In this document: positions 19,794-61,898 of the stretch, piece by piece
How positions within the stretch are numbered: position 1 is the stretch's first letter
Layout: the number at the start of each line of letters is the position of its first letter
Source: Sandaracinaceae bacterium
GTDB lineage: Bacteria; Myxococcota_A; Polyangia; Polyangiales; JAFGIB01
Direction: 5' to 3'
Length of the DNA: 64,000 bases
NCBI GenBank assembly: GCA_017881055.1
Contig: JADGRF010000225.1
Coordinates: forward strand, 9,486-73,485
Notes under the pieces: model-generated
What the model was told of the DNA's origin: nothing
What the model saw: the letters and a program-made list of their open reading frames with translations, nothing else
The model's database searches: none
Position numbers and translations under genes: made by a program

Positions 19794-19807
19794 ATGGGTG
19801 AGTACCC

Positions 19808-20671
19808 ATGGAGTACGACGAGCGAGGCTTTGCCTCCGCCGCGGACGGCACCAAGCTGTTCTACGGCATCAAGGGTCAAGGCCCTGGACTCGTCCTACTC
19901 GATGGCATCGGCTGCGACGGCTGGGCCTGGACGCACATCCAACCGCACCTCGCGCTGCATCACCGCGTCGTGCACACGCATTACCGTGGCCACGGTCGGA
20001 GCGGATCAGGCGTAGATCGCACGGCCACCGACATCCTCACCCTGCGCGACGACGTGTTGCGCGTGATGGATGCCACGGGCCTCTCACAGGCCACGCTGCT
20101 TGCCCACTCGATGGGCACGCAGGTCGCGCTCGAAATCTATAGGGCGCAGCCCGAGCGCGTGCGCGCGCTGATCTTGGTCTGCGGCTCCCACGGCCGCATC
20201 ACGCATACGTTCCACGGCAACAACATGCTGCATCGCGTGTTGCCCACGCTGATCACCAACGTTCGCAAGTACGAGCCGATCGCGCGCGCGCTCTGGGGCC
20301 GCTTGCCGCCCGCGCTCAGCTACCGCGTGGCGCGCTGGCTGCGCGAGATCGACGGCACCACGCTGCGTCCCGACGACTTCCGTCAGTACGTCGAGCACCT
20401 CTCCGACATCGAACTCGATCTGTACCTGACGATGCTGCAAGCCGCGGGCGAGCACAGCGCCGAAGACATGCTCGGCACGATTCGCGTTCCCACGCTGGTG
20501 ATCGCCGCCGAACGCGACACGTTCACGCCGTCCGACGTCGTGAGAGACATGGCCGATCGCATCCCAGGCGCCAGCTACCTCTTGCTGAACGGCGCCAGCC
20601 ACGCCGCCCCCAGCGAACAACCCGAAGCCATCAACACCGCCATCGACAACCTTCTCGCTAAGCTGACCTGA
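19808..20671 (+). CDS. alpha/beta hydrolase fold protein
   Basis: 287 aa. Has an HGRSG segment and the nucleophile elbow AHSMGT, and is colinear with alpha/beta hydrolases. Confidence 0.85.
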   Translation: MEYDERGFASAADGTKLFYGIKGQGPGLVLLDGIGCDGWAWTHIQPHLALHHRVVHTHYRGHGRSGSGVDRTATDILTLRDDVLRVMDATGLSQATLLAHSMGTQVALEIYRAQPERVRALILVCGSHGRITHTFHGNNMLHRVLPTLITNVRKYEPIARALWGRLPPALSYRVARWLREIDGTTLRPDDFRQYVEHLSDIELDLYLTMLQAAGEHSAEDMLGTIRVPTLVIAAERDTFTPSDVVRDMADRIPGASYLLLNGASHAAPSEQPEAINTAIDNLLAKLT

Positions 20672-20677
20672 ACGCGC

Positions 20678-20820
20678 CGCGAGTTGGGGTCCATGCGCGG
20701 CTTACGTCGGGTTGCGGGTTCGCGTTCGCGAACCCGAAGACAGGCGCGGGTCGGTCACGTACAGGAAGTACGCTCCCTCGCCGCGCTGCGGGCGCGCTCG
20801 CGCCTGAACCCCAACTCGCG
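20678..20820. repeat. palindrome-flanked intergenic repeat, copy 1 of core Y
   Basis: 13-bp perfect inverted repeat cgcgagttggggt / accccaactcgcg (20678-20690 / 20808-20820) encloses a core (20698-20801). The core shares identical blocks of 11, 11 and 30 nt with the inverted copy at 27982-28053. Confidence 0.7.
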
Positions 20821-20872
20821 ACGCTCACCTTTCAGTGAGATCTTGACGCCTGCAACCGGACGGGCGACGCGA

Positions 20873-27892: not shown

Positions 27893-27964
27893 CAGCCCCA
27901 CGCCAAGCGCGCCCGAAGGGCCGCGCGCCCCCCGGACGCACTCTCCCCACCGGTCAAGCGCGAG

Positions 27965-28071
27965 CCGATTTGCCTCGCAGAGCGAGCGCGCCCGCAGCGC
28001 GGCGAGGGAGCCGTACTCCCGTACGTGACCGAGCCAAGCGAGGACGTAAGCCGCTCTGCGAGGCAAAGCGG
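27965..28071. repeat. palindrome-flanked intergenic repeat, copy 2 of core Y (inverted)
   Basis: 16-bp perfect inverted repeat tttgcctcgcagagcg / cgctctgcgaggcaaa (27969-27984 / 28052-28067, extendable by 3 bp after one mismatch) encloses a 67-nt loop homologous to 20698-20801 in reverse orientation. Confidence 0.7.
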
Positions 28072-28091
28072 CCGCGCGTATCAGGTCGCTT

Positions 28092-28143
28092 AAAAAGCGC
28101 ATCGCCGCTGGCTTGGGGTTAACCAAGCCAGCGGCGCATGCGC
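28092..28143 (-). terminator. intrinsic terminator of the Lys/Ala-rich gene
   Basis: On the minus strand: GCGCAT-G-CGCCGCTGGCTTGG, loop TTAACC, CCAAGCCAGCGGCG-ATGCGC, followed by TTTTT (28096-28092). It begins about 30 nt after the stop at 28172. Confidence 0.7.
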
Positions 28144-28171
28144 GGCCGCTCAAGTTTCGAGAGCAAGGCTC

Positions 28172-28452
28172 TCAATTTGCGGAGGGGTTGGTTGCGGCTG
28201 ACGCGAAGCTCGTCGTTTCTGACGATGCCTCCGCCCCAATCGGCTCAGGTTGACTCACCGCTTCAACCTTCGCGGCCTTCTTCCTCTTCGCAGGGCTAGC
28301 CTTTTTTGCGGCCTTCTTGGCTTTGCCCTTAGTAACCGGCTTCTTAGCCTTGGCTACTTTTTTTTTGCGGCCTTACGCTTGCCGCCCTTACGCTTCTTCG
28401 CGGCCTTTTTAGTGGCCTTCTTCGCTGCCTTCTTACGCTTTTTCGCTGCCAT
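28172..28452 (-). CDS. Lys/Ala-rich histone H1-like basic protein, continuous only with a -1 shift (or one extra A) at an A9 run
   Basis: AGGAGG lies 8 nt upstream of the ATG at 28452. Frame 0 gives 32 aa (MAAKKRKKAAKKATKKAAKKRKGGKRKAAKKK) and then TAG at 28356-28354. The -1 frame continues VAKAKKPVTKGKAKKAAKKASPAKRKKAAKVEAV... to the TGA at 28174-28172. Confidence 0.6.
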
Positions 28453-28783
28453 GTGATGACCCTCCTATGGTCGTAGGATGAATGCAACGTATTGTAGGGT
28501 GATGCCACGTGTCAAGCATGCAAACACATAAATTATACATAACTTATGGGTCTTTGTGCGATCAGTGGTGCGTATCATTTTCAAGCCACTGATTTTATTG
28601 GAGAATTTACGTTGCAGTGGAAGGGCCAAATTCAGCTGTGACCGCGTCGATTCACGCTTGATCACTGATCCAAGCGCCCTCTCGCACCCCAATCGTTGAC
28701 AGCGCGAAGCCCCCAGACCTAACGTCGGCCCCTCATTCACGGGTCGCGGTTCGGGCCCGTGCTTAACGAAGCGAGAAGATGCG

Positions 28784-32080: not shown

Positions 32081-33649
32081 ATGGCTGGTAACTCACTCGT
32101 CATCAACATCGACATCTCGGAAACTCGCGTCGCGCTGATCGAAGGCGGAAGCATCACCGAGCTGTTCGTCGAGCGCGAACAGGACAAGAGCCCCGTCGGC
32201 AACGTGTACCTCGGCAAGGTCACGCGCGTTTTGCCCGGCATGCAGGCTGCGTTCATCGACATCTCGCTCGATCGCGCCGCGTTCTTGCACGTGGAAGACG
32301 TCGTTCCGCAGGAGGACATGGACAACCTCCTCAACAACGACGAGGAAGACACGTCGTCCGACGATCCGACTACGGCCGAGCAGGGCGAAGGCGAGGAGAT
32401 CGAACCGAAAGCCAAAGCCGTGGCTCGCAAAGTCACCCGCGCCACGCCGATCCGCGACGTTCTCAAGGAGGGCCAATCGCTGATGGTGCAGGTCAGCAAA
32501 GGCCCGATCGGCACCAAGGGCGCGCGCGTCACCAGCCACATCGCGCTGCCGGGTCGCTACGTCGTGTACCTGCCAACGGTCGAGCACATCGGCATTTCCA
32601 AGCGCATCGGCAATGATGTTGAACGGAAGCGCCTGCGCGAGGCGATCGAGCAAGTGAAGCCGCCGCAGGGTGGCTTCATCGTGCGCACGGTCGCGACCGG
32701 TCTCACCAAGAAGCAGCTCAAAGCCGACGTCGGCTACCTGATCACGCAGTGGGACGGCGTGAGCAAGCGGCGCGCGACGGTGAAGACCGCACCCGCCCTG
32801 CTCTACGAAGATCTCGACATCACGTTGCGCGTCGCGCGCGACTACTTCACCGAGAACGTCGAGAAGATCATCATCGACTCGCCCTCGGAGTACGAGCGGC
32901 TGCGTGCGTTCATCGGCACGTTCTTGCCCGAGCGCATCAACGACATCGAGCTGTACCAGGGTCGCGATCCGATCTTCGACGAGTACGGCATCGAGGACGA
33001 GATTTCGCGCGCGCTCTCACGCAAGGTGCCGCTCGCGTCGGGCGGGTACTTGATCATCGACCAGGCCGAAGCACTGACCGCGATCGACGTGAACACCGGT
33101 CGCTTCACGGGCAAGGGCAAAGACGTCGAAGAGACGATCTATCAGACCAACCTGGAAGCGGTGCAGGAGATCACCTACCAGCTGCGCTTCCGCAACATCG
33201 GCGGCTTGATCGTGCTCGACTTCATCGACATGGAGCGCGCCAAGAACCGCGACCGCGTCTACAAGATGCTGGCGGAGGCGCTCAAGAAGGACCGCGCCAC
33301 GACCACTATCACCCGCATCAGCGAGCTGGGCCTGGTGGAAATGACGCGCAAGCGCACCCGCGAGTCGCTGGGGCGCACGCTGTTCGAGCCGTGCTTCTAC
33401 TGCGACGGCACCGGCCAGCTGCAGTCCAAGGCCACGATCTGCCACGAGATCGTGCGCCAGATCCGCCGCGAGAAGGACTCCTTGCCCGGCTACAAGGTGA
33501 TCGTGAACGCGCACCCTGCGATCTGCGACATGCTCAAGCGCGAGCACAAGGGCGCGCTTGACGAGGCGCAGAACCGCTTCACGCGCCAGATCGTCGTACG
33601 CCCGCACAAGGAGTACCATCTGGAGCAGTTCGACCTCAAAGGTGCGTGA
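32081..33649 (+). CDS. rng: ribonuclease G/E family endoribonuclease
   Basis: 522 aa. S1 domain (GNVYLGKVTRVLPGMQAAFIDI) with an acidic insert, the catalytic region (IIDQAEALTAIDVNTG) and a Zn-link CFYCDGTG. Confidence 0.9.
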   Translation: MAGNSLVINIDISETRVALIEGGSITELFVEREQDKSPVGNVYLGKVTRVLPGMQAAFIDISLDRAAFLHVEDVVPQEDMDNLLNNDEEDTSSDDPTTAEQGEGEEIEPKAKAVARKVTRATPIRDVLKEGQSLMVQVSKGPIGTKGARVTSHIALPGRYVVYLPTVEHIGISKRIGNDVERKRLREAIEQVKPPQGGFIVRTVATGLTKKQLKADVGYLITQWDGVSKRRATVKTAPALLYEDLDITLRVARDYFTENVEKIIIDSPSEYERLRAFIGTFLPERINDIELYQGRDPIFDEYGIEDEISRALSRKVPLASGGYLIIDQAEALTAIDVNTGRFTGKGKDVEETIYQTNLEAVQEITYQLRFRNIGGLIVLDFIDMERAKNRDRVYKMLAEALKKDRATTTITRISELGLVEMTRKRTRESLGRTLFEPCFYCDGTGQLQSKATICHEIVRQIRREKDSLPGYKVIVNAHPAICDMLKREHKGALDEAQNRFTRQIVVRPHKEYHLEQFDLKGA

Positions 33650-33672
33650 GCACCACGCGATACAGGTGCGTG

Positions 33673-34041
33673 ATGAGCGACCACGACGAACGACATGACG
33701 ACGCGCGTGATGACGCGCGTGATGACGCGCGTGATGACAAACGACAAGGCTCGCGCGTCACCATCAACAAGGACTTCGAGTCGTTCGACGAGTTCATCCG
33801 CGAGTACGTCACGAACATCTCGAAGACCGGGGCGTTCGTGAAGCGCGGGGATCCGCTGCCGATCGGGACCGAAGTGAACCTGAAGTTCACGGTCATCATG
33901 GATGACATCGAGACGATCGAAGGCGTCGGCAAGGTCGTGCGCGTGCAACAGGACCCGCCCGGGATGGGCGTCGTGTTCACGAAGGTCAGTCAGTACTCGC
34001 AGCATCTGCTGGAACGCCTGTTGACGAAGAACAACGAGTAA
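33673..34041 (+). CDS. PilZ-type domain protein with acidic repeat N-terminus
   Basis: The RVTINKDFESFDEFIREYVTNISKTGAFV...GTEVNLKF...GVGKVVRV pattern resembles the Myxococcus-type PilZ paralogous domain (family recalled from memory). An ATG at 33673 is preferred over the GTG at 33646. Confidence 0.7.
   Translation: MSDHDERHDDARDDARDDARDDKRQGSRVTINKDFESFDEFIREYVTNISKTGAFVKRGDPLPIGTEVNLKFTVIMDDIETIEGVGKVVRVQQDPPGMGVVFTKVSQYSQHLLERLLTKNNE
33697..33738 (+). repeat. 12-nt tandem repeat (ga[ct]gacgcgcgt, about 3.5 copies) encoding DDAR repeats
   Basis: Direct reading: gacgacgcgcgt, gatgacgcgcgt, gatgacgcgcgt, gatgac, inside the PilZ gene. Confidence 0.85.
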
Positions 34042-34058
34042 TCCCGACTCGAGTGCTC

Positions 34059-34536
34059 GACTGAACGGCGCCGGGGAGGGGCTCTTCACCGCTGCGCTGA
34101 ACGGCGTCGGGGAGGGGCTCCGAACGCGCGCAGGTACACCCACGCCGCCCCGCGGCCCTCCGCAGCGCAAACCGCTGGCAACTTGCAACGGGGGGCGGCT
34201 TGCCTCCGCGCGTTCGGAGCCCCTCCCCGACGCCTGCGCCCCAACGAGCTGTCAGCCCGCGCCATTGCGGCGTTTGCGTGAAGCCCCAGTCGGCCTTGTC
34301 AGCTGCACACGCGGTCTCGAATCGCCACTACGGCGGTCACTGCCCACCACTGCCCTACCGCACCGCGCTAACGCAGGTCAGCGGGTGGGTGCGCAATCGC
34401 GCGGACGCAAGCCGCCCCCCTGCTGCAACCTGCAAGCGGCTCGGACCGCGGAGAGCCGCGGGGCGGCGTGGGTGTACCTGCGCGCGATTGCGCACCCACC
34501 CGCTGACCGTTCAGCTCACCGCTGACCGTTCAGTCA
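34059..34536. repeat. 478-bp composite palindromic element filling a convergent intergenic region
   Basis: Terminal inverted repeat gactgaacgg / ccgttcagtc. Two modules each have a perfect 28-bp stem (34103-34130/34207-34234 and 34376-34403/34481-34508). Their 76- and 77-nt loops are reverse complements of each other. Confidence 0.85.
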
Positions 34537-34540
34537 ACGC

Positions 34541-35467
34541 TCACGTCTCTGGAGTCGGCGGCGTGACCTTCAAGTAGCCGTCGTTGATCAGCGTGGCTAG
34601 CGCGTTGGCGATCGCGATGTCGTCCAGTGGGCAGTTGTTGAAGACTGCTTCGAGCTGGGTTTGATGCAGCGCGACTTGCAGCACGTCGAGCTGCTCGGGC
34701 GAGAGATCGCGCAGCTTCGCGAGCAACGGTCGCGTCAGCGAGATGCGCGAGAGCATGGTCGGCAGCTCGACGCGATTGACCTCGTCGAAGATGCGCAGGC
34801 CTTCCATCAGCGCGCCTTCAGCCGACATCTGGATGCGGTTTGGCAGCTGACCTTCTTCGGCGGGCTCCATGTAGAACGTGCCGTGGCGCCACGTGATGAT
34901 GCGGTACGCGCTCTTCTCGGGCGCCAGCACCTCGGAGTCGTTGATCGTCGCGAGGATGATCATGCCGCGCTCGAGGTAGATCTTGCCGATGTCGGTCTCG
35001 GTCTTGACCACGAGCACGCCGGTCTTGCGCGACGAGCCGAACAGCTGGAGTAGATCGGGCAGCGGCACTTCGTCGATCGCGCCCGACATGCTGCGCACTT
35101 GATTGGTGCGCCTACCCGCGGCGACTTCTTGCAGCTGCTTTCTTCCGACGGGCGGTGAAACCGTCGCGGCGTCGCTCGTGACGAGCTTGATGATGCTCGT
35201 GCCGATCAACACGCGGTCACCGTCGTTCAGCGTGGCGCGCTTGATGCGCTCACCGTTCACGAACGTGCCGTTCGTCGAACCGAGATCTTGAATCGTGACC
35301 TGATCCGCGCTCACGACGATCTTCGCGTGCCGACGCGACACCATGTCTTCGACGAGCACCATGTCGAGCTCGCTGGCGCGACCGACGATGACCTCGGAGT
35401 TCGGCGGCAAAGCGAACTCGCCCCCTTGGTACTTCCCCGAGATGAAACGCATGGCGTAATGCTTCAT
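34541..35467 (-). CDS. FHA domain plus DUF4388 (PatA-N-like) protein
   Basis: 308 aa. N-terminal FHA (VIVGRASELDMVLVEDMVSRRHAKI, GSTNGTFVNG). Central PLPDLLQLFGSSRKTGVLVV motif typical of DUF4388. Confidence 0.8.
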   Translation of the reverse strand: MKHYAMRFISGKYQGGEFALPPNSEVIVGRASELDMVLVEDMVSRRHAKIVVSADQVTIQDLGSTNGTFVNGERIKRATLNDGDRVLIGTSIIKLVTSDAATVSPPVGRKQLQEVAAGRRTNQVRSMSGAIDEVPLPDLLQLFGSSRKTGVLVVKTETDIGKIYLERGMIILATINDSEVLAPEKSAYRIITWRHGTFYMEPAEEGQLPNRIQMSAEGALMEGLRIFDEVNRVELPTMLSRISLTRPLLAKLRDLSPEQLDVLQVALHQTQLEAVFNNCPLDDIAIANALATLINDGYLKVTPPTPET

Positions 35468-35640: not shown

Positions 35641-38562
35641 TTGAGCTTGGGGTCGCCTTGGTCCATGCATCTGGGGTCACGGTTTTGGGCGATCGTCGCT
35701 CTTTCGTGGGGGCTTTCGGCTACGCACGCGTGTCACGTCGCAGGTCAAGCGCCGGATCCGCGCTTGGTCTGGCACACGCTCTACACCGAACACTTCAGCA
35801 TCACGTACCACGACCCGCTCGCGCCGATCGCACAACATCTCGCCGTTTCTGCTGAACGCGCGAACACCCGAGTCTCACGAGCACTCGGCTATCGCGCCTC
35901 GGAGCGCACGCTGCTGCTGCTCACCGACGACACGGACGACGCCAACGGCGTCGCGAACGTGCTGCCGCGCAACGAGATCCATCTCTACGCCACCGCGCCG
36001 GACGACCTTTCCGAGATCGGCGACTACGACGACTGGATCGCCACACTTGTCACACACGAGCACACACACATTCTGCATCTCGATCAGATCGGCGGGGTCG
36101 CTGCGATCCTGAATGTGCTCTTGGGCAAGAGCGTGGCGCCGAACACCGTCCAACCGCGCTGGTTCATCGAGGGCATCGCGACGTACGAAGAGTCGGCGCA
36201 GACGTCCGGCGGCCGCGGACGCTCGTCGCTGTTCGACATGATGCTGCGCATGGACGTGCTGGAGGATCGCTGGCTGTCGATCGACGACATCAGCAACGAT
36301 CCGGTGCGCTGGCCGCATGGCGACATTCGCTACCTGTACGGCTCGCGGTTTCTCACGTTCATCGCCGAGCGCTACGGACCGCAGGCCCTCGCGCGCATCG
36401 GTCACGACTACGGGCGTCAAACCTTTCCGTACGGCCTCAATCGCGTGGCGAAGCACGCGACGGGCTTCACCTTCATCGAGCTGTACGAGCAGTTCCACGA
36501 GGCGATGCGCGAGCGCTACGGCGCGCTGCGTGATGCCGTAGTGCAACAAGGCCGCATCGAGGGGCGCGCGCTGACTGCGCACTCGGACATCGCACGGACG
36601 CCGCGCTACGCGAGCGACGGCAAGCTCGTCTTCTACCGCGATGACGGCCACACGTTCGGAGGCCTGTACACGCTGGACGGCACGCTGGTCACGCGCAGCT
36701 CGGGCCAAGCCGTGGCCGCGCCGCATCCTGATGGGCGCAGCGTGATCTACAGCCAGGTCGCGCCCTACCGTGACATCTACGGCTTTCACGACCTGTTTCG
36801 CTTCGACCAAGCGACGGGCGAGAGCGAGCGGCTCACGACCGGCATGCGCGCCAGTCAGCCGGATGTGTCGCCCGATGGTCGTTCCGTCGTGTTCGTCACA
36901 CAGAAGAACGGCAGCTCGCAGCTGGAGCTTGCCGAGCTTGCCAACATCGCCGGCACACGTCACGCGCTGCTCGGCGCAGCGCCGTACCAGCAAGCGTTCA
37001 CGCCGCGCTTTTCGCCGGACGGCGCGACGCTCGTGGCGAGTGTCTGGCGTACGGGCGGCTACCGCGACATCGTGCTCGTCGATCGGACGACCGGGGCGGT
37101 GCGCGAGCTGACGCACGATCGTGCGCAGGACACGGGGCCGACGTTCTCGCCCGACGGCTCCCGCGTGTACTTCAGCTCGGATCGCAGCGGCGTCTCGAAC
37201 ATCTACGCATTCGAGCTCGCGACCGGCAGCACGTCGCAGATCACGAACGTGATCGCCGGCGCGTACCAGCCCGTGATCTCGCCCGATGGCAAGACGCTCG
37301 TGTACGTCGGCTACGAGAGTCACGGCTACGGGTTGCACGAGCTGCCGCTCGGCGGCCTCACGCCGCGCGTTGCCGAGCCGTACCACGATACGCGACCGAG
37401 CGCGGACGCGGCGCCCGAGCCCGCAGCGCTGCCCGTGCACGACTACGAGCCACTGCAGACGATCCTGCCGCGCAACTATCAGCTGGAGCTGCGCAACGGG
37501 GCGCTCGGCTACGACCTCGGTATCCACATCGCCGGCAACGACATCGCGGGTTTCCACCACTACAAGCTGTTCGTCTCAGCGAACCTGGAGCGCGGCGATC
37601 CCAGCGTGTCGCTCAGCTACAGCTACGGGCGCTCGCTGCTCTATCCCTCGATCCGCGTGTTTCACGAGATCGCGGCGCGCTCCGATCTCGTGGTCGGAGG
37701 TAAGCCGCGTCGCTGGTTCGCGGAGAACGTGGGGGTGAGCGCAGGCGTGACCTATCGCTTCGCGTCGATCCTGCGTTCGCAGAGTATCGACTTCGACTAC
37801 TCGTTCGTGGATGTGCGGCGCGCGCGTCCGTTCGGCGGTGTGCTCGATCCGAACGATCCGCCGCCGCGCTTGCCGCGGCTCGGCTACTTGCCGAGCGCAG
37901 GTGTGGGCTACCGTTACTCGGATGTCGCAGGCGACGAGTACGGGATCAGTCCGTCGTCGGGACGCAACCTTGGTATGCGCGTGGACGCGAGCGATCCGAT
38001 CATGGGCCGCAGCATTCACAGCGCCACGCTGCGCTTGTCGGCAAAACAGTTTCTGCGCATGCCGTGGGGAAGCCAGCACGTGCTCGCGGCCAGCTATGGA
38101 GGCGGCTTCGCCGGCGGCGATCCGGGACGTATCGGCGTGTTCTCGATCGGCGGTTTCGCGCGGGGCACCGGGCTGCCATCGATCTACGACCTCGCGGTGT
38201 TCGGGTCGCTGCCGAGCCTGGGCGGCGAAGCGCTGCGCGGCTATCCCGAAGGGCACCGCAGCGGCACGCAGTACCACCTGCTGCAGGTCGAGTACCGCTT
38301 CCCCTTGTTCGATCCCGAGTGGGGCCCCTACACGCTGCCGTTCTACCTGCGGCGTGTGTTTGCCGATGTGTTCGCCGACGCAGGCGACGCCTTCTCCGAG
38401 CCGATCAAGCCCAAGGACGTTCTCGTGGGTGTCGGCGGCGAGCTCTTCACGAACTTCGAGATCAGCTACCGGATCACGTTCGATGTTCGCATCGGAGTCG
38501 CACGCGGTCTCGGCGAAGGCGGCCAGACGCAGTTCTACGCGCACTTGGGCTCGCCGTTCTGA
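35641..38562 (+). CDS. outer-membrane protein: HExxH peptidase-like region, TolB-like beta-propeller and C-terminal beta-barrel
   Basis: Signal peptide; THEHTHILH motif; five or more PD40-like repeats (SPDGRSVVFV, FSPDGATLV, FSPDGSRVYFSSDRSG, ISPDGKTLVYV); the barrel-like C-terminus ends in the OMP beta-signal ...YAHLGSPF. The start may be the ATG at 35665. Confidence 0.75.
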   Translation: MSLGSPWSMHLGSRFWAIVALSWGLSATHACHVAGQAPDPRLVWHTLYTEHFSITYHDPLAPIAQHLAVSAERANTRVSRALGYRASERTLLLLTDDTDDANGVANVLPRNEIHLYATAPDDLSEIGDYDDWIATLVTHEHTHILHLDQIGGVAAILNVLLGKSVAPNTVQPRWFIEGIATYEESAQTSGGRGRSSLFDMMLRMDVLEDRWLSIDDISNDPVRWPHGDIRYLYGSRFLTFIAERYGPQALARIGHDYGRQTFPYGLNRVAKHATGFTFIELYEQFHEAMRERYGALRDAVVQQGRIEGRALTAHSDIARTPRYASDGKLVFYRDDGHTFGGLYTLDGTLVTRSSGQAVAAPHPDGRSVIYSQVAPYRDIYGFHDLFRFDQATGESERLTTGMRASQPDVSPDGRSVVFVTQKNGSSQLELAELANIAGTRHALLGAAPYQQAFTPRFSPDGATLVASVWRTGGYRDIVLVDRTTGAVRELTHDRAQDTGPTFSPDGSRVYFSSDRSGVSNIYAFELATGSTSQITNVIAGAYQPVISPDGKTLVYVGYESHGYGLHELPLGGLTPRVAEPYHDTRPSADAAPEPAALPVHDYEPLQTILPRNYQLELRNGALGYDLGIHIAGNDIAGFHHYKLFVSANLERGDPSVSLSYSYGRSLLYPSIRVFHEIAARSDLVVGGKPRRWFAENVGVSAGVTYRFASILRSQSIDFDYSFVDVRRARPFGGVLDPNDPPPRLPRLGYLPSAGVGYRYSDVAGDEYGISPSSGRNLGMRVDASDPIMGRSIHSATLRLSAKQFLRMPWGSQHVLAASYGGGFAGGDPGRIGVFSIGGFARGTGLPSIYDLAVFGSLPSLGGEALRGYPEGHRSGTQYHLLQVEYRFPLFDPEWGPYTLPFYLRRVFADVFADAGDAFSEPIKPKDVLVGVGGELFTNFEISYRITFDVRIGVARGLGEGGQTQFYAHLGSPF

Positions 38563-38617
38563 CGGTGAGCGCAGCTGCACGCGGGCGAGCCCCGAGGAGC
38601 CATGATAGGAAGGACCC

Positions 38618-39697
38618 ATGTCAGCGCACGACAAGCACGACGGACCCGCGATCTTGTTTGGTGGGATTGGCTCGGAGCGTTTGGTGTCGACGGCGTCGAC
38701 CCAGCTCGTCGCGACGGTGCTACCGGAAGCCGAGCTGCTGTTCTGGGCAAAAACGGGCAGCATCCATCGCGTGTCGGCCGACGAGCTACGTGCGCACGCA
38801 CGTCCGTTCACGGACGAGCTCGTGACGGCGCAGCCAGCGCAAGCCGCCAGCATCGATGAGCTGCTGCAAACCTGGGACGTGCGGCGCGCGATCGTGCTCG
38901 GTTTGCACGGCGTCGACGGTGAGTCTGGCGAGCTGCAGCGAAAGCTCGAGGCGCGACGCATTCCGTACACGGGCTCGGGCGCGGATGCATCGCGCACGGC
39001 ATACGACAAAGCCGCGGCCAAGCAGGCCGTCGCCGCGCGAGGCGGCGCGGTGGCCGAAGCGCGCATGAGCACGGCGGGCGAGCTCGGCGAGCATCGTGAT
39101 TGGGTGCAGGGCACGCTGGCCTCGGGCCGCGATGTGTTCGCGAAGCCGCGCGCGGATGGCTCGAGCGTGGGCCTGTACCGTTTGCGTAGCACGCAGGACT
39201 TCGAGCGCATGCTGGAGCTGCTGCGCGGCGAACCGGAGCGCGGCTATCTGCTCGAAGCAGCTGTGCTCGGGCGCGAGCTGACCACCGGCGTCGTCGAGTG
39301 GAGCGACGGCGAACGCGCGCTGCCCAGCTCGGAAGTGCTGCTGTCAGGTGCAAGCACGTTCGGCTACGACGAAAAGTACGTGACCGCAGGCGCGACCGAG
39401 ATCACGCCGGCCGAGCTACCGCACGACGTGGCCGAGGCCGCGAAGACGCTCGCGCTCGACGCCCATCGCGCCGTCGGCTGTCGCGGCTACTCGCGCACCG
39501 ACTGCATCTGGGACGGGACGCGCATGGTCTTCCTCGAGATCAACACCCTACCCGGCCTCACGCCACGCTCGTTCATTACCCAGCAACTTCAAGTTGCGGG
39601 TTTCACGATGCGCGAGTTCTTGGAGCGTCAGCTGGCTATCGCGCACGCGCGACTAACAAACCGCGTGGGCCCAGCGCCGCGTCAGGGAATTCGTTAG
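38618..39697 (+). CDS. ddl: D-alanine--D-alanine ligase family ATP-grasp enzyme
   Basis: 359 aa. ILFGGIGSERLVSTAS N-terminus, IPYTGSG, and C-terminal GYSRTDCIW...FLEINTLPGLTPRS. Confidence 0.75.
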   Translation: MSAHDKHDGPAILFGGIGSERLVSTASTQLVATVLPEAELLFWAKTGSIHRVSADELRAHARPFTDELVTAQPAQAASIDELLQTWDVRRAIVLGLHGVDGESGELQRKLEARRIPYTGSGADASRTAYDKAAAKQAVAARGGAVAEARMSTAGELGEHRDWVQGTLASGRDVFAKPRADGSSVGLYRLRSTQDFERMLELLRGEPERGYLLEAAVLGRELTTGVVEWSDGERALPSSEVLLSGASTFGYDEKYVTAGATEITPAELPHDVAEAAKTLALDAHRAVGCRGYSRTDCIWDGTRMVFLEINTLPGLTPRSFITQQLQVAGFTMREFLERQLAIAHARLTNRVGPAPRQGIR

Positions 39698-46293: not shown

Positions 46294-47946
46294 GTGACCA
46301 TCAGCGCCAACACCGAGCCCGCGTTCGACCCAAAGCTCGGTCAACTCTTGCTCGGGCGCTACCGCATCGTGCGTAAGCTCGGCGAAGGCGGCATGGGCGC
46401 GGTCTACGAAGGCAAGCACGAGCTGATCGGCAAGCGCCTGGCGATCAAGTGCCTGCACCCGCAGTACATGTCGAACAAGGAAGTGGTCGAGCGCTTCCAT
46501 CGCGAGGCGCACGCCGCGACCGCGGTCGGCAACGAGCACATCATCGAGGTCAGCGACGTCGGCGCCTTCGACGACGGCTCGCCCTTCATCGTGATGGAGT
46601 TCCTGGACGGCGTCGAATTCGGGCGGCTGATCGAGCAGGAAGGCAGCCTGCCTGTCGCGCGCCTCGTTCACATCGTGACCCAGCTGTGCGGCGCCCTGTC
46701 AGCTGCACACGCACGCGGCATCGTGCATCGCGACATGAAGCCCGAGAACGTGTACCTGATCCGGCGCGGCAACGATCCCGACTTCGTGAAGGTGCTCGAC
46801 TTCGGCATCTCGAAGATGAAGGAACACAGCGAAGCCATCGGCGGCAGTCTGACCAAGACCGGCATGGCGCTCGGCACGCCGTATTACATGCCGCCCGAGC
46901 AAGCTCAGGGCGTGCGTGATCTCGACCATCGCGCAGACGTCTATGCCGTCGGGGTGATCCTGTATCAGGGCCTGACGGGCCGCTTGCCGTTCGACGCGGA
47001 CAGCTATCCCGCGCTGATGGTCAAGATCCTCACCGAGCAAGCGGCGCCGCCCACGGTGTTCCGTGGCGACGTGCCGTCCGAGCTCGAGCAGATCGTGATG
47101 ATGGCGATGGCGAAAGATCGAGCCAAGCGCTTTCAGACGATGGACGAGCTGGCCGCAGCGCTCGCACCGTTCGCAAACCTGAACGGCAAGCCGGAGATGC
47201 TGGCGAGCATTCGACCTTCCGGGGCCGTCGAGACCACCCCGTTCAACTGGACGCAGAAGAACGCAGAGCCTTCGACCGAAGCGCGTACGCCGACGGAGAT
47301 TCTACCGAAGCGGCCGCTCGCGTTGATCGCAAGTGGTGCGGCCGTGGGCCTCGTGTTGATGGTCGGTGTGATCGTGGCCTTGCGTGGTGGCGCTCCCCCG
47401 AACGTGCCGACGCCAGCGCGGGCGCAGACACCGGCCCAGCGGATCGCCGCGCTGCCGCCGGCTGCAGTGCCGGCCGCCACAGCGCAACCGACCGCGCCGG
47501 TGATGCCGCCGGCGGTCCAAGCGCCAAAGCCGACCGAAGTGCAGGTGAAGATCAGCGCGCTGCCGAAAGAAGCCCGCATCTACATCGCCGACGTCGAGTT
47601 CCCGAACCCGATGGATGCGTGGCGACCGCGCTCGCTCGATCCCGTGCGCCTGCGCGTCGAGCTGCCGGGCTATCGCACGGTCGAGCAACTCGCGATCTTC
47701 GATCAGGATCGCGCGATCCGCTTCGAGCTCGAGAAGGGCCACGGTGTGAAGCGCCTCGAGACGCTTGGCGGCGCGACGCCGGAGAGCGCGGGTGCGACCA
47801 CCGCAAAGCCAGAAGCGCCGGCACAACCCGCGGCAACACTCGTCATCAAGCCGGCAGTCCCTGCGAAAGCGGCCGAGGTCCCGTCGGAAAAGCCGAAGGA
47901 CGACCTCTATCACGGACCGAGCGGCGCGATTCGCGACAATTTTTGA
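46294..47946 (+). CDS. Hanks-type Ser/Thr protein kinase with TM segment and C-terminal PEGA-like domain
   Basis: GEGGMGAVYEG, LAIKCL, HRDMKPENV, DFGISK and GTPYYMPPE motifs. TM helix LALIASGAAVGLVLMVGVIVAL. Extracytoplasmic PKEARIYIADVEF...VELPGYRTVE segment. Confidence 0.9.
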   Translation: MTISANTEPAFDPKLGQLLLGRYRIVRKLGEGGMGAVYEGKHELIGKRLAIKCLHPQYMSNKEVVERFHREAHAATAVGNEHIIEVSDVGAFDDGSPFIVMEFLDGVEFGRLIEQEGSLPVARLVHIVTQLCGALSAAHARGIVHRDMKPENVYLIRRGNDPDFVKVLDFGISKMKEHSEAIGGSLTKTGMALGTPYYMPPEQAQGVRDLDHRADVYAVGVILYQGLTGRLPFDADSYPALMVKILTEQAAPPTVFRGDVPSELEQIVMMAMAKDRAKRFQTMDELAAALAPFANLNGKPEMLASIRPSGAVETTPFNWTQKNAEPSTEARTPTEILPKRPLALIASGAAVGLVLMVGVIVALRGGAPPNVPTPARAQTPAQRIAALPPAAVPAATAQPTAPVMPPAVQAPKPTEVQVKISALPKEARIYIADVEFPNPMDAWRPRSLDPVRLRVELPGYRTVEQLAIFDQDRAIRFELEKGHGVKRLETLGGATPESAGATTAKPEAPAQPAATLVIKPAVPAKAAEVPSEKPKDDLYHGPSGAIRDNF

Positions 47947-48030
47947 GACGGCGTCGCATGACGCGCGATCTGCTTCGTCTCGCGCGCCAGGCGACGCCGT
48001 TTCCTCGCGTGGGGGAATAGCGGTATCCTC

Positions 48031-60586: not shown

Positions 60587-61278
60587 GTAAGGCGCTCGTT
60601 TGGGTGATCGCAGCGATCGCGTTTCTGATCCCCACGATCATGGTCACGACCTGGGTGCACTCGGCGGGCACGCGCTTGGCCGAGAGCCAGACCCAGGCCA
60701 AGACCGCGCCGCAGGTGGCCGTGGCCTCGGCCGCCGACGAGTCGTACTGCACGCCGCAGCTCAAGAGCATCCTGCGGCGCGTGCTGAAGAGCTGCGGCTT
60801 GCTCGAGTCGGGCGAAGTGCGCGGCTGTCAGCCGACCGACGCGAAGCAGGTGGCCACGCTCGCCGGTGGTGACTTCAACGCGCTGTTCCTGCCGATGGCG
60901 AAGCGAGCCGGCGTGGTCGAGTACGACATGGACAGCGCAGCGCTCGATCCGCAGGACACGGCGTTGATCGACAAGGTGTTCGCCGACCAGCAAGGCGCGA
61001 GCTACTTCTTCGTCGTGGCGCGTGCCTCGCCGGAAGGCTCGGTCGAGCACAACCGCGAGCTCAGCAAGCAGCGCGCCGAGGCGCTGATGAACTACTTGCG
61101 CCAGAAGTACAAGGACCCGGACCTCGACCACGAAGTCGGTCTGCTCTGGCTGGGCGAGGAGTTCGCGCAGCTCGACCAGCGCTTCTGTGAGTGGCAGCGC
61201 AGCGGAATACCCGGCGCATGTTCGACCGAGAACCTGAACCGCAGCGCGTTCATTTCATGGATCGACTGTCAGCTATGA
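60583..61278 (+). CDS. membrane-anchored protein with OmpA-like C-terminal region
   Basis: 231 aa from MSKALVWVIAAIAFLIPTIMV (ATGA overlap with the upstream gene). Has VVARASPEGSVEHNRELSKQRAEAL, resembling the OmpA-family core. Confidence 0.55.
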   Translation: MSKALVWVIAAIAFLIPTIMVTTWVHSAGTRLAESQTQAKTAPQVAVASAADESYCTPQLKSILRRVLKSCGLLESGEVRGCQPTDAKQVATLAGGDFNALFLPMAKRAGVVEYDMDSAALDPQDTALIDKVFADQQGASYFFVVARASPEGSVEHNRELSKQRAEALMNYLRQKYKDPDLDHEVGLLWLGEEFAQLDQRFCEWQRSGIPGACSTENLNRSAFISWIDCQL

Positions 61279-61898
61279 AAAGTGTGCAGCTGACAAATGC
61301 GAAGCGGTTGGCGCCTCGGTTTGCGCTCGTCGCGCTGCTCAGCGCGAGCGCGTGCAACGACAGCGCGTCGTCCGCGGCCGCCGCACCCGAGGTCGCGGCC
61401 CGCGCCGACGTCGTGATGCAGACCAAGAAGGCGCAGACCTTCGCGGACTTGTGCGACGTCGCACCCGAGAAGACCGCGCCGAAGGCCTTCACCTGGCCGC
61501 AGCTCACGGCGCCCGCCGCTGCGGGCGGCAGTGGCTACCGGTGGGTCAACGTCTGGGCGACCTGGTGCAAGCCGTGCATCGAAGAGCTGCCCATGCTCAC
61601 GCGCGTCTTCGGCGACTGGAAAAAGCAAGGACAGTCGGTGCAGCTGACGCTGCTGTCGGTCGACGCCGACGCGGCCGCAGCGCAGAAGTTCATCGCAGAC
61701 CACGCCGGCACGCCCGCCACACTGCAGGTCGGCGACCCCTCGCAGGTGTCCACCTGGCTGACCAGCCTCGGCCTGGCCAGCGGCTCGTCCATTCCGGTAC
61801 ACATGCTAGTCGACGCGCAGAACAACCTGGTCTGCGCGCGCGCGGGCGGAATCAGCGAGCAAGATCTCGAGCGCTTCCGACGCGCGATGTTCCCCTGA
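61275..61898 (+). CDS. TlpA/redoxin-like thioredoxin-fold lipoprotein
   Basis: Lipobox LLSASAC and active site WATWCKPC. ATGA overlap with the upstream gene. Confidence 0.8.
   Translation: MKSVQLTNAKRLAPRFALVALLSASACNDSASSAAAAPEVAARADVVMQTKKAQTFADLCDVAPEKTAPKAFTWPQLTAPAAAGGSGYRWVNVWATWCKPCIEELPMLTRVFGDWKKQGQSVQLTLLSVDADAAAAQKFIADHAGTPATLQVGDPSQVSTWLTSLGLASGSSIPVHMLVDAQNNLVCARAGGISEQDLERFRRAMFP

Follow-up and report, generated by a model that had tools for sequence, protein, structure and literature searches.

Bacterial palindromic repeats of the repetitive extragenic palindrome (REP), REPIN, MITE (miniature transposable element with inverted repeats) and ERIC types are built around conserved ends. 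REPs, for example, carry the motif GTAG 5' of their hairpin. Here we describe hairpin elements of the inverse design, with a fixed center and a few fixed stem positions, the rest of a 28-bp stem being free in sequence yet perfectly paired, in DNA of an uncultured Polyangiales bacterium (Myxococcota). The DNA examined is a stretch of 64 kb, referred to below as the window. Two of the elements, A1 and A2, form a block in the spacer between a PilZ gene and a convergent gene for an FHA-DUF4388 protein (the A block), and two others, B1 and B2, lie 13 and 6 kb from it, respectively. These four copies, all within the one window, are the known members.

Several properties of described systems bear on this design. 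Template switching perfects the arms of inverted repeats (quasi-palindromes) in bacteria (PMC5941160, PMC10710096), and the creation of entire perfect hairpins in a single event has been documented (PMC10710096). Compensatory changes are frequent in REPINs (PMC3116915), and the targets of IS801/IS91 include GAAC (PMC3189936). We read the elements in the window as non-autonomous palindromic repeats that belong to a single family restricted to this lineage, or to a pair of sister families. Our favored explanation, which we put at a little under an even chance (roughly 0.45), is that they are REPIN/MITE-like hairpin repeats whose arms are kept perfect by templating at the DNA level, and that they probably also serve as hairpins at mRNA 3' ends.

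A lineage-specific insertion with two fully compensated stems

The orthologous PilZ/FHA spacer in four relatives, whose FHA proteins are 85-90% identical and whose genes are 80-87% identical at the nucleotide level, is 15-25 nt long and hairpin-free, and the convergent genes are intact. In the two closest relatives this spacer reads gcgaagcgcggtcgc. The block at 34059-34535 is absent from all four loci, and both genes are intact in the window. Given the short spacers of the relatives and the intact genes of the window, the ~480 nt of the A block, stems included, were added in the lineage of the window; because the spacers of the relatives lack a hairpin, the stems arrived together with the cores. 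The named relatives of the FHA-DUF4388 protein are Polyangiales metagenome-assembled genomes (MAGs). A blastn search with the A and B cores came back empty in 66 kb of relatives' DNA, compared with four copies in the 64-kb window, and a covariance model built from A1 and A2 alone found nothing comparable in 60 kb of relatives' DNA.

Both modules have a perfect 28-bp stem around a loop of 76 nt (A1) or 77 nt (A2), as an earlier, sequence-only reading of this DNA had reported. The A2 module lies on the opposite strand, and its core is the reverse complement of the A1 core, here called core X, at 65 of 76 positions with one 1-nt indel; the earlier description had the relationship and the indel right and the count one too low, at 64. 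In both modules CTGAAC stands directly 5' of the stem and TGCG directly 3'. The outer ends of the block form the perfect inverted repeat GACTGAACGG / CCGTTCAGTC that had been described, and units containing CTGAACGG are duplicated at both ends. On the left, the reported 24-nt direct repeat (34061-34084 and 34097-34120) is present at 96% identity, and the A1 3' arm could pair through its outer 18 nt with the outer copy. On the right, 15 nt are directly repeated (34500-34514 and 34519-34533). Contrary to the earlier description, the block does not fill the whole spacer: 17 nt (34042-34058) and 5 nt (34536-34540) lie outside the outer inverted repeat.

Perfect inverted repeats of 28 bp with a loop of up to 150 nt are expected ~2e-9 times by chance in 64 kb of the same composition. 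The predicted stability of the A modules as RNA is -100 to -105 kcal/mol, with folding z-scores of -10.3 and -8.6 as RNA and -11.8 and -9.5 as DNA. When A1 is aligned with the reverse complement of A2, 16 of the 28 stem positions are invariant, namely GG, GGG-N-GGG, two single positions and CGCGCG. Every one of the remaining 12 base pairs is changed on both sides, with none half-changed and none broken. The stems had been called unrelated apart from their GG start and CGCGCG end; these shared ends stand, and the label does not, given the 16 constant positions, GGG-N-GGG among them, and the common CTGAAC and TGCG flanks. None of 500 column shuffles matched the covariation values of the stems, and in a control in which the 3' partners were slid by 1-3 columns, pairing fell to 36-52%.

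The kind of change differs between arms and cores. The two stems, with 56 base pairs in all, contain no G-U pair, and nine of the 12 arm changes are transversions, compared with seven transitions and four transversions in the core (hand count for the core). In the inner helix of the core, both A copies retain one U-G pair on the CTGAAC strand. Of the free arm positions, 12 of 12 differ, compared with ~15% of the core, so that the free positions look saturated or replaced and the core looks slightly drifted. Saturation of this kind suggests that A1 and A2 are long-diverged relatives that split before the insertion, rather than a recent local duplicate, and a divergence older than the insertion implies other copies somewhere. 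A comparison of the variable arm segments with the rest of the window, allowing up to five mismatches, gave no match. Pair flips, which account for eight of the 12 changes, were dropped as a mechanistic clue because they are near the chance expectation that we estimate for the GC content of the window.

The surroundings of the A block have features of their own. The 14-mer TGTCAGCTGCACAC has three exact copies in the window, far above chance: at 34297-34310, in the middle of the 141-nt segment between A1 and A2; at 46697-46710 (+), inside a Ser/Thr kinase gene, where it encodes ..ALSAAHA..; and at 61282-61295 (-), in the first codons of an open reading frame (ORF) at 61191..61898. A very short piece of kinase-gene-like filler may thus be part of the central segment. 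The inner flanks of the two modules show no significant similarity to each other (p = 0.53), and a sigma-54-like TGGCA..TTGC motif in core X was rejected on inspection for its wrong spacing. The PilZ ORF overlaps the RNase G stop codon by 4 nt, and it starts with a repeated acidic/basic stretch (33646-33760), HDDARDDARDDARDDKR, that is apparently missing from the shorter PilZ proteins of the relatives (105-119 aa). A Tricorn/PD40-like protease gene adjoins the FHA gene in the window (35641-39697) and in relative L029; in relatives L027 and L028 the FHA gene adjoins the ribosome recycling factor gene, and other genes lie between FHA and RNase G. The FHA neighborhood is a rearrangement hotspot among the window and its relatives.

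A second family of the same plan

B1 and B2 came to light when the window was scanned for long inverted repeats. Their cores are homologous to each other (94% over 52 nt, E 6e-13) and unrelated to core X, and their arms, ~26-28 bp each, are unrelated between the two copies. The A and B elements follow a common plan: a CTGA(A)C motif, a copy-specific arm of ~26-28 bp, a conserved core and the complementary arm. Consistent with this, the next-best matches in the window to the A1/A2 covariance model, after the A copies themselves, are B1 (25 bits, E 0.005) and B2 (17.7 bits), both in the CTGAAC-first orientation. CTGA(T)AC stands directly 5' of all four stems and of both partial units of the A block. 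The mismatches in the B1 stem include C-A and U-C on the sense strand; plain mismatches, as the B copies have, would be expected of DNA repeats that age.

B1 is also an insertion: its spacer is 201 nt long in the window, compared with 34 nt in a relative whose hydrolase is 86% identical. The hydrolase gene (19808..20671) has as its stop codon the TGA contained in CTGAAC at B1, and because the orthologous hydrolases also end in ..AKLT followed by the stop codon, the motif is partly native at this site. In the A block, unlike at B1, CTGAAC came with the insertion. The idea that one arm of B1 derives from native spacer sequence was dropped, as the best alignment to the spacer of the relative gave p = 0.24. 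The 5' flanks of B1 and B2 have 12 of 13 nt in common (TAAGC(T)GACCTGA; unanchored p = 0.07), which is suggestive only, either of a target preference or of a copied flank.

The three loci share a genomic setting. All are spacers between convergent genes, near stop codons; A1, A2 and B1 start 0-19 nt past a stop codon, and B2 instead lies just past a terminator on the minus strand. By our rough gene calls, an element is present in 3 of ~7 convergent spacers and in none of ~38 other spacers (hand-calculated p ~0.003). A1, A2 and B1 are oriented like the gene upstream, and the orientation of B2 is ambiguous. No U-tract (T-run) follows any of the four stems, and no promoter-like site was seen in the A spacer. 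Two canonical intrinsic terminators in the window, one at 28097-28140 (-) with a 20-bp stem, one bulge and TTTTT, and one at 47944-48006 between an A-run and a T-run that could act bidirectionally, indicate that the organism uses ordinary terminators.

These results bear on what the sequence-only reading had proposed. It was half right: pairing is maintained, yet an insertion into prior hairpins is not supported. Its proposal of a hairpin family with maintained pairing holds in outline, given the double change of all 12 variable pairs and the second family of the same plan. Its other proposal, that the core inserts into the apex of a pre-existing hairpin, conflicts with the hairpin-free spacers of 15-25 nt in the relatives and with the 16 positions that the stems share; none of the four PilZ/FHA loci of the relatives is an empty hairpin site (a stem without a core). 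As grounds for refutation it had named a core X that is unique to an untranscribed locus or, alternatively, other copies without flanking inverted repeats, which would point to a local duplication-inversion accident. No further copy of core X was found in the collections searched, and the B elements do carry flanking inverted repeats, so that an accident of this kind is not the best reading.

Further observations concern the B elements and their sites. Within the B1 core, at 20715-20736, is an extra nested perfect hairpin, GGGTTCGCG TT CGCGAACCC, in a 43-nt stretch that replaces 11 nt of B2; because B2 lacks this hairpin, the cores appear to change by hairpin gain or loss. Beside B2, at 28067-28150, a 13-bp inverted repeat with one mismatch, AGCGGCCGCGCGT / ATGCGCGGCCGCT, encloses the terminator hairpin, a nested palindromic arrangement that abuts the 5' end of B2. 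Upstream of the terminator and B2 lies a very small Lys/Ala-rich ORF, MAAKKRKKAAKKATKKAAKKRKGGKRKAAKKK (28354-28453, -), which may be the gene for a small histone-like or ribosome-associated protein; it is contained in a stretch that is unusually AT-rich (28290-28780). Relative L028 (JGI 3300079105) has a tandem array at 19801-20198 (~3 copies, periods 73 and 99 nt, matching at 92-95%) downstream of an NFACT-like gene, the locus equivalent to the site of B2. At this place, therefore, relatives carry other, unrelated intergenic repeats.

Features of the A block and the B elements (window coordinates)
Feature	Positions	Strand	Description
Left outer end GACTGAACGG	34059..34068	+	Inverted repeat of 34526-34535 without mismatch; relatives lack the whole sequence from this end to 34535
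Partial extra 5' unit of A1	34061..34084	+	CTGAAC and first 18 nt of the A1 stem; 23/24 identical to 34097-34120
CTGAAC junction motif of A1	34097..34102	+	Directly 5' of the A1 stem
Module A1	34103..34234	+	Stem 34103-34130 with 34207-34234
A1 5' arm, 28 nt	34103..34130	+	GG, 5 variable, GGG-N-GGG, 8 mostly variable, CGCGCG
A1 core X, 76 nt	34131..34206	+	Own inner helix GCCGCCCC/GGGGCGGC, variable apex
A1 3' arm	34207..34234	+	Exact complement of 34103-34130, followed by conserved TGCG at 34235-34238
Central segment between modules, 141 nt	34235..34375		No symmetry, no match in relatives
Module A2	34376..34508	-	5' arm 34508-34481, core 34480-34404 (77 nt), 3' arm 34403-34376
CTGAAC junction motif of A2	34509..34514	-	GTTCAG on the plus strand; adjoins the A2 stem
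Partial extra 5' unit of A2 and right outer end CCGTTCAGTC	34519..34535	-	CTGAAC and first 9 nt of the stem; right outer end at 34526-34535
B1	20668..20824	+	CTGAAC, 26-bp stem with 3 mismatches, 99-nt core
B2	27958..28084	-	CTGATAC, ~28-bp stem with 1 mismatch and 1 bulge, 67-nt core

Proposed spread as DNA and the competing explanations

Under the favored explanation, each member is a unit of ~140 nt consisting of CTGAAC, a 28-nt arm with constant and free positions, a structured core and the exact complement of the arm. We propose that such a unit spreads as DNA in the manner of REPINs and MITEs, with an enzyme encoded elsewhere in the genome, that a sequence resembling CTGA(A)C is where it recombines or next to which it lands, and that it persists in spacers between convergent genes, where an insertion would do little harm. 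The arms would stay perfect because one is copied from the other by template switching across the inverted repeat during replication. Alternatively, the copying could occur by fold-back synthesis, for which CGCGCG, self-complementary and present at both borders of the core, would act as the priming site. The stems of A1 and A2 stop exactly at CTGAAC|GG, and a strand that begins at a nick behind CTGAAC could, once folded back at CGCGCG, use its own 5' arm as template over the full length. The partial units of CTGAACGG plus arm outside both modules would then look like copying that was aborted and restarted. The A block itself could have arisen in two ways: each gene may have received one member behind it, the two thus coming to lie back to back, or two members may have moved as a composite together with 141 nt of foreign filler. 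The copies are probably transcribed with their upstream genes, as they lie 0-19 nt past the stop codons, and they would form very stable hairpins at mRNA 3' ends, with a stabilizing or insulating influence that we regard as a side effect.

A number of points weigh against this explanation. MITEs and REPINs conserve their ends, whereas the elements in the window conserve their center, and if a single-stranded DNA mechanism with strict strand specificity were at work, two independent insertions would not be expected to leave A1 and A2 on opposite strands of the same locus. As the CTGA of B1 is native gene sequence, CTGA(A)C is ambiguous: it may be the target, the end of the element or a short core for recombination that both share. 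The outer junctions of B1 and of the A block show no target-site duplication. Of the 46 genes called in the window, none encodes a transposase, integrase, RAYT, HUH nuclease or reverse transcriptase domain; the genes are of a housekeeping type and include those for polyphosphate kinases, NADH dehydrogenase subunits, RNase G, CarD, ribosome recycling factor and EF-Ts. The contrast in transitions and transversions between arms and core is weak (one-sided p ~0.07). A filled/empty polymorphism within a species is not among the evidence for mobility, and only four copies are known. Exact 19-20-mers and blastn found no more of core X, with the source genome beyond the window unsearched, and the concatenated six-frame translations of the four cores had no match at E <=10 among 5.8 billion proteins, so that no spurious ORF over a further copy came to light.

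Searches in other collections were likewise negative. Exact-word scans, which diverged copies could escape, returned chance matches only: 12 for the core X word GGTACACCCACGCCGCCCC in GTDB representative genomes, four for the core X word AGGTACACCCACGCCGCCC in JGI metagenomes and eight for a 17-mer of core X in viral contigs (IMG/VR), where no match was returned for core X with a 20-mer or for core B with a 22-mer. By blastn, neither plasmids nor phages matched the A block, and B1 had no match among plasmids. In the literature we found no relevant description of a myxobacterial repeat of this kind.

One alternative is that the copies are structured RNA modules at mRNA 3' ends, with stem pairing kept by selection on the RNA. 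Such modules could stabilize the upstream message, insulate convergent transcription or be processed as double-stranded RNA, and the core would be the protein-binding or otherwise functional part. The positions of the copies, 0-19 nt downstream of genes or, for B2, just past a terminator, fit this idea, as do the shared direction of A1, A2 and B1 with their upstream genes, the extreme predicted stability (-100 to -105 kcal/mol, z -8.6 to -10.3), the perfect covariation of the stem, the U-G pair retained in the inner helix on the CTGAAC strand of both A copies, and a core that is far more conserved than the free stem positions. However, an RNA-selected path that proceeds gradually would go through wobble pairs, and the stems have none in 56 pairs; most of the changes are transversions, for which a wobble intermediate is impossible. 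Together with the real mismatches in the B copies, among them C-A and U-C on the sense strand of B1, the absence of G-U pairs and the nine transversions in 12 changes make the complementarity look templated at the DNA level rather than selected on RNA. In addition, B2 may hardly be transcribed in the sense direction, because it lies past a canonical terminator of its own strand (28097-28140, TTTTT), and no U-tract follows the stems although the organism uses canonical terminators. In close relatives the same genes stand without the element, suggesting that it is dispensable there. No Rfam 15 family matched at its gathering score in the window, and at E <=10 the interval 33950-34650 had two chance-level matches. 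On this evidence we consider selection on RNA an unlikely source of the pairing.

A second alternative, which we find harder still to accept, is that the core with its CGCGCG borders is the sole moving part and that the outer arms are local, provided by a prior hairpin or by a template-switched copy of the flank. It would account for free arm positions that are unrelated between copies around conserved cores, and it could draw on the self-complementary hexamer at both borders of the A cores, which could prime fold-back copying, on the documented formation of perfect hairpins in a single template-switch event (PMC10710096) and on the nested perfect hairpin that the B1 core has and the B2 core lacks. 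Yet the empty sites of the relatives are 15-34 nt long, with neither a hairpin nor recognizable arm sequence, and the 16 constant arm positions and the CTGAAC and TGCG flanks are unexpected of purely local sequence. No match to the variable arm segments exists elsewhere in the window with up to five mismatches, and the A block also brought in its 141 nt of foreign central sequence.

We regard it as improbable that the elements represent an undescribed class that rebuilds its stem at each copying, a 'rolling hairpin'. An enzyme would nick 3' of CTGAAC, and the strand, folding back on itself at CGCGCG, would copy the 5' arm as far as the nick, leaving a perfect duplex of ~20 bp of free sequence within a constant scaffold. 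In a variant of this idea, specificity could reside in the free 20-bp duplex itself, which might for instance give rise to double-stranded RNA or guides. Equally improbable is a one-off local accident, in which a single hairpin insertion was duplicated in inverted orientation within the spacer with no family and no function: core X was found just twice in everything searched, adjacent and inverted, and the outer ends of the A block are perfect 10-bp inverted repeats, but the arms differ at 12 of 12 free positions compared with 15% in the cores, which is impossible for a recent duplication, the symmetry ends at the outer CTGAAC (its extension into the FHA 3' end, as a local inverted duplication including gene sequence, was dropped because flank similarity beyond that point is not significant, p = 0.15), and two more elements of the same plan with another core lie 6 and 13 kb away.

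Comparison with known systems

Some described structures can be set aside. The modules are not intrinsic terminators, since their loops are 67-99 nt long and no T-run stands behind any of the four stems. The A modules do have an outer perfect repeat, as the a1/a2 of a retron would be; a retron was rejected because we judged the 76-nt core too short for msr plus msd and no reverse transcriptase is nearby. Integron attC sites are alike in being imperfect palindromes of variable sequence and conserved fold with a fixed orientation at gene 3' ends, and GCTGAAC fits the RYYYAAC box at six of seven positions (read by eye). In attC sites, however, the end boxes are conserved and pair and the center is variable, whereas the 3' side of the modules in the window has no partner box. 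With CTGAAC on one side and TGCG on the other, housekeeping neighbors and no integrase in the window, we rejected an attC site.

Template-switch (quasipalindrome) mutation makes perfect arms of any sequence in one step, which fits the 12 double and zero single changes in the A stems. It is a mutation process, and alone it leaves the conserved cores, the common junction motif and the insertions unexplained. The IS200/IS605 and IS91 (HUH) elements resemble those in the window in having no conserved terminal inverted repeats and no target duplication, in the recognition of hairpins and possibly in a short fixed sequence at one end only; CTGAAC ends in GAAC. They differ in that each of their ends has a separate subterminal hairpin, rather than one hairpin spanning the whole element, and the 4-nt resemblance to the GAAC of IS91 is weak, as B2 has GATAC, and serves as a lead only. 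MITEs, ERIC/IRU and Correia/NEMIS elements are likewise non-coding sequences of 100-170 nt that form long hairpins, lie near the ends of genes with which they are transcribed and occur in some genomes but not in others that are related. MITEs have the same terminal inverted repeats in all copies and a target-site duplication, and no parent insertion sequence is known for the elements in the window. A classical MITE was rejected because 12 of the 28 arm positions are not the same in A1 and A2, the arms of B1 and B2 are essentially unrelated, and there is no target-site duplication.

The resemblance to REPINs and bacterial interspersed mosaic elements (BIMEs), inverted doublets of REPs that RAYT transposases mobilize, is broad. 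These are also non-coding, extragenic, often placed between convergent genes and lineage-restricted by vertical descent. They too form an inverted doublet with a spacer that can fold as one long hairpin or as two local ones, and the 499-nt A spacer does fold as one long hairpin (-297 kcal/mol), as expected of such a doublet. A short conserved motif stands 5' of the hairpin in both, GTAG in REPs and CTGAAC here, and the compensatory changes of the A stems have a parallel in those common in REPINs (PMC3116915). The differences lie in size, with a unit of ~130 nt in the window compared with ~25 nt for a REP, and in which part is constant: REPINs conserve the terminal REPs (~20-25 nt) and leave the middle free. 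The elements in the window are not REPs, as they have no conserved short palindrome, and the palindrome beside CTGAAC is copy-specific, without GTAG.

If the family is abundant in Polyangiales, it would affect the assembly of MAGs, gene calling in long 'empty' spacers and the 3' ends of convergent mRNAs; if only four copies exist, it is a curiosity. The elements would offer a natural example for the study of how perfect inverted repeats arise and persist, by template switching or fold-back synthesis. The conservation pattern, with a constant center and a largely free stem, is the opposite of that in REPINs/BIMEs and MITEs, and the elements appear to be a new variant on the theme of bacterial palindromic repeats, in which the behavior of the stem is unusual and possibly informative.

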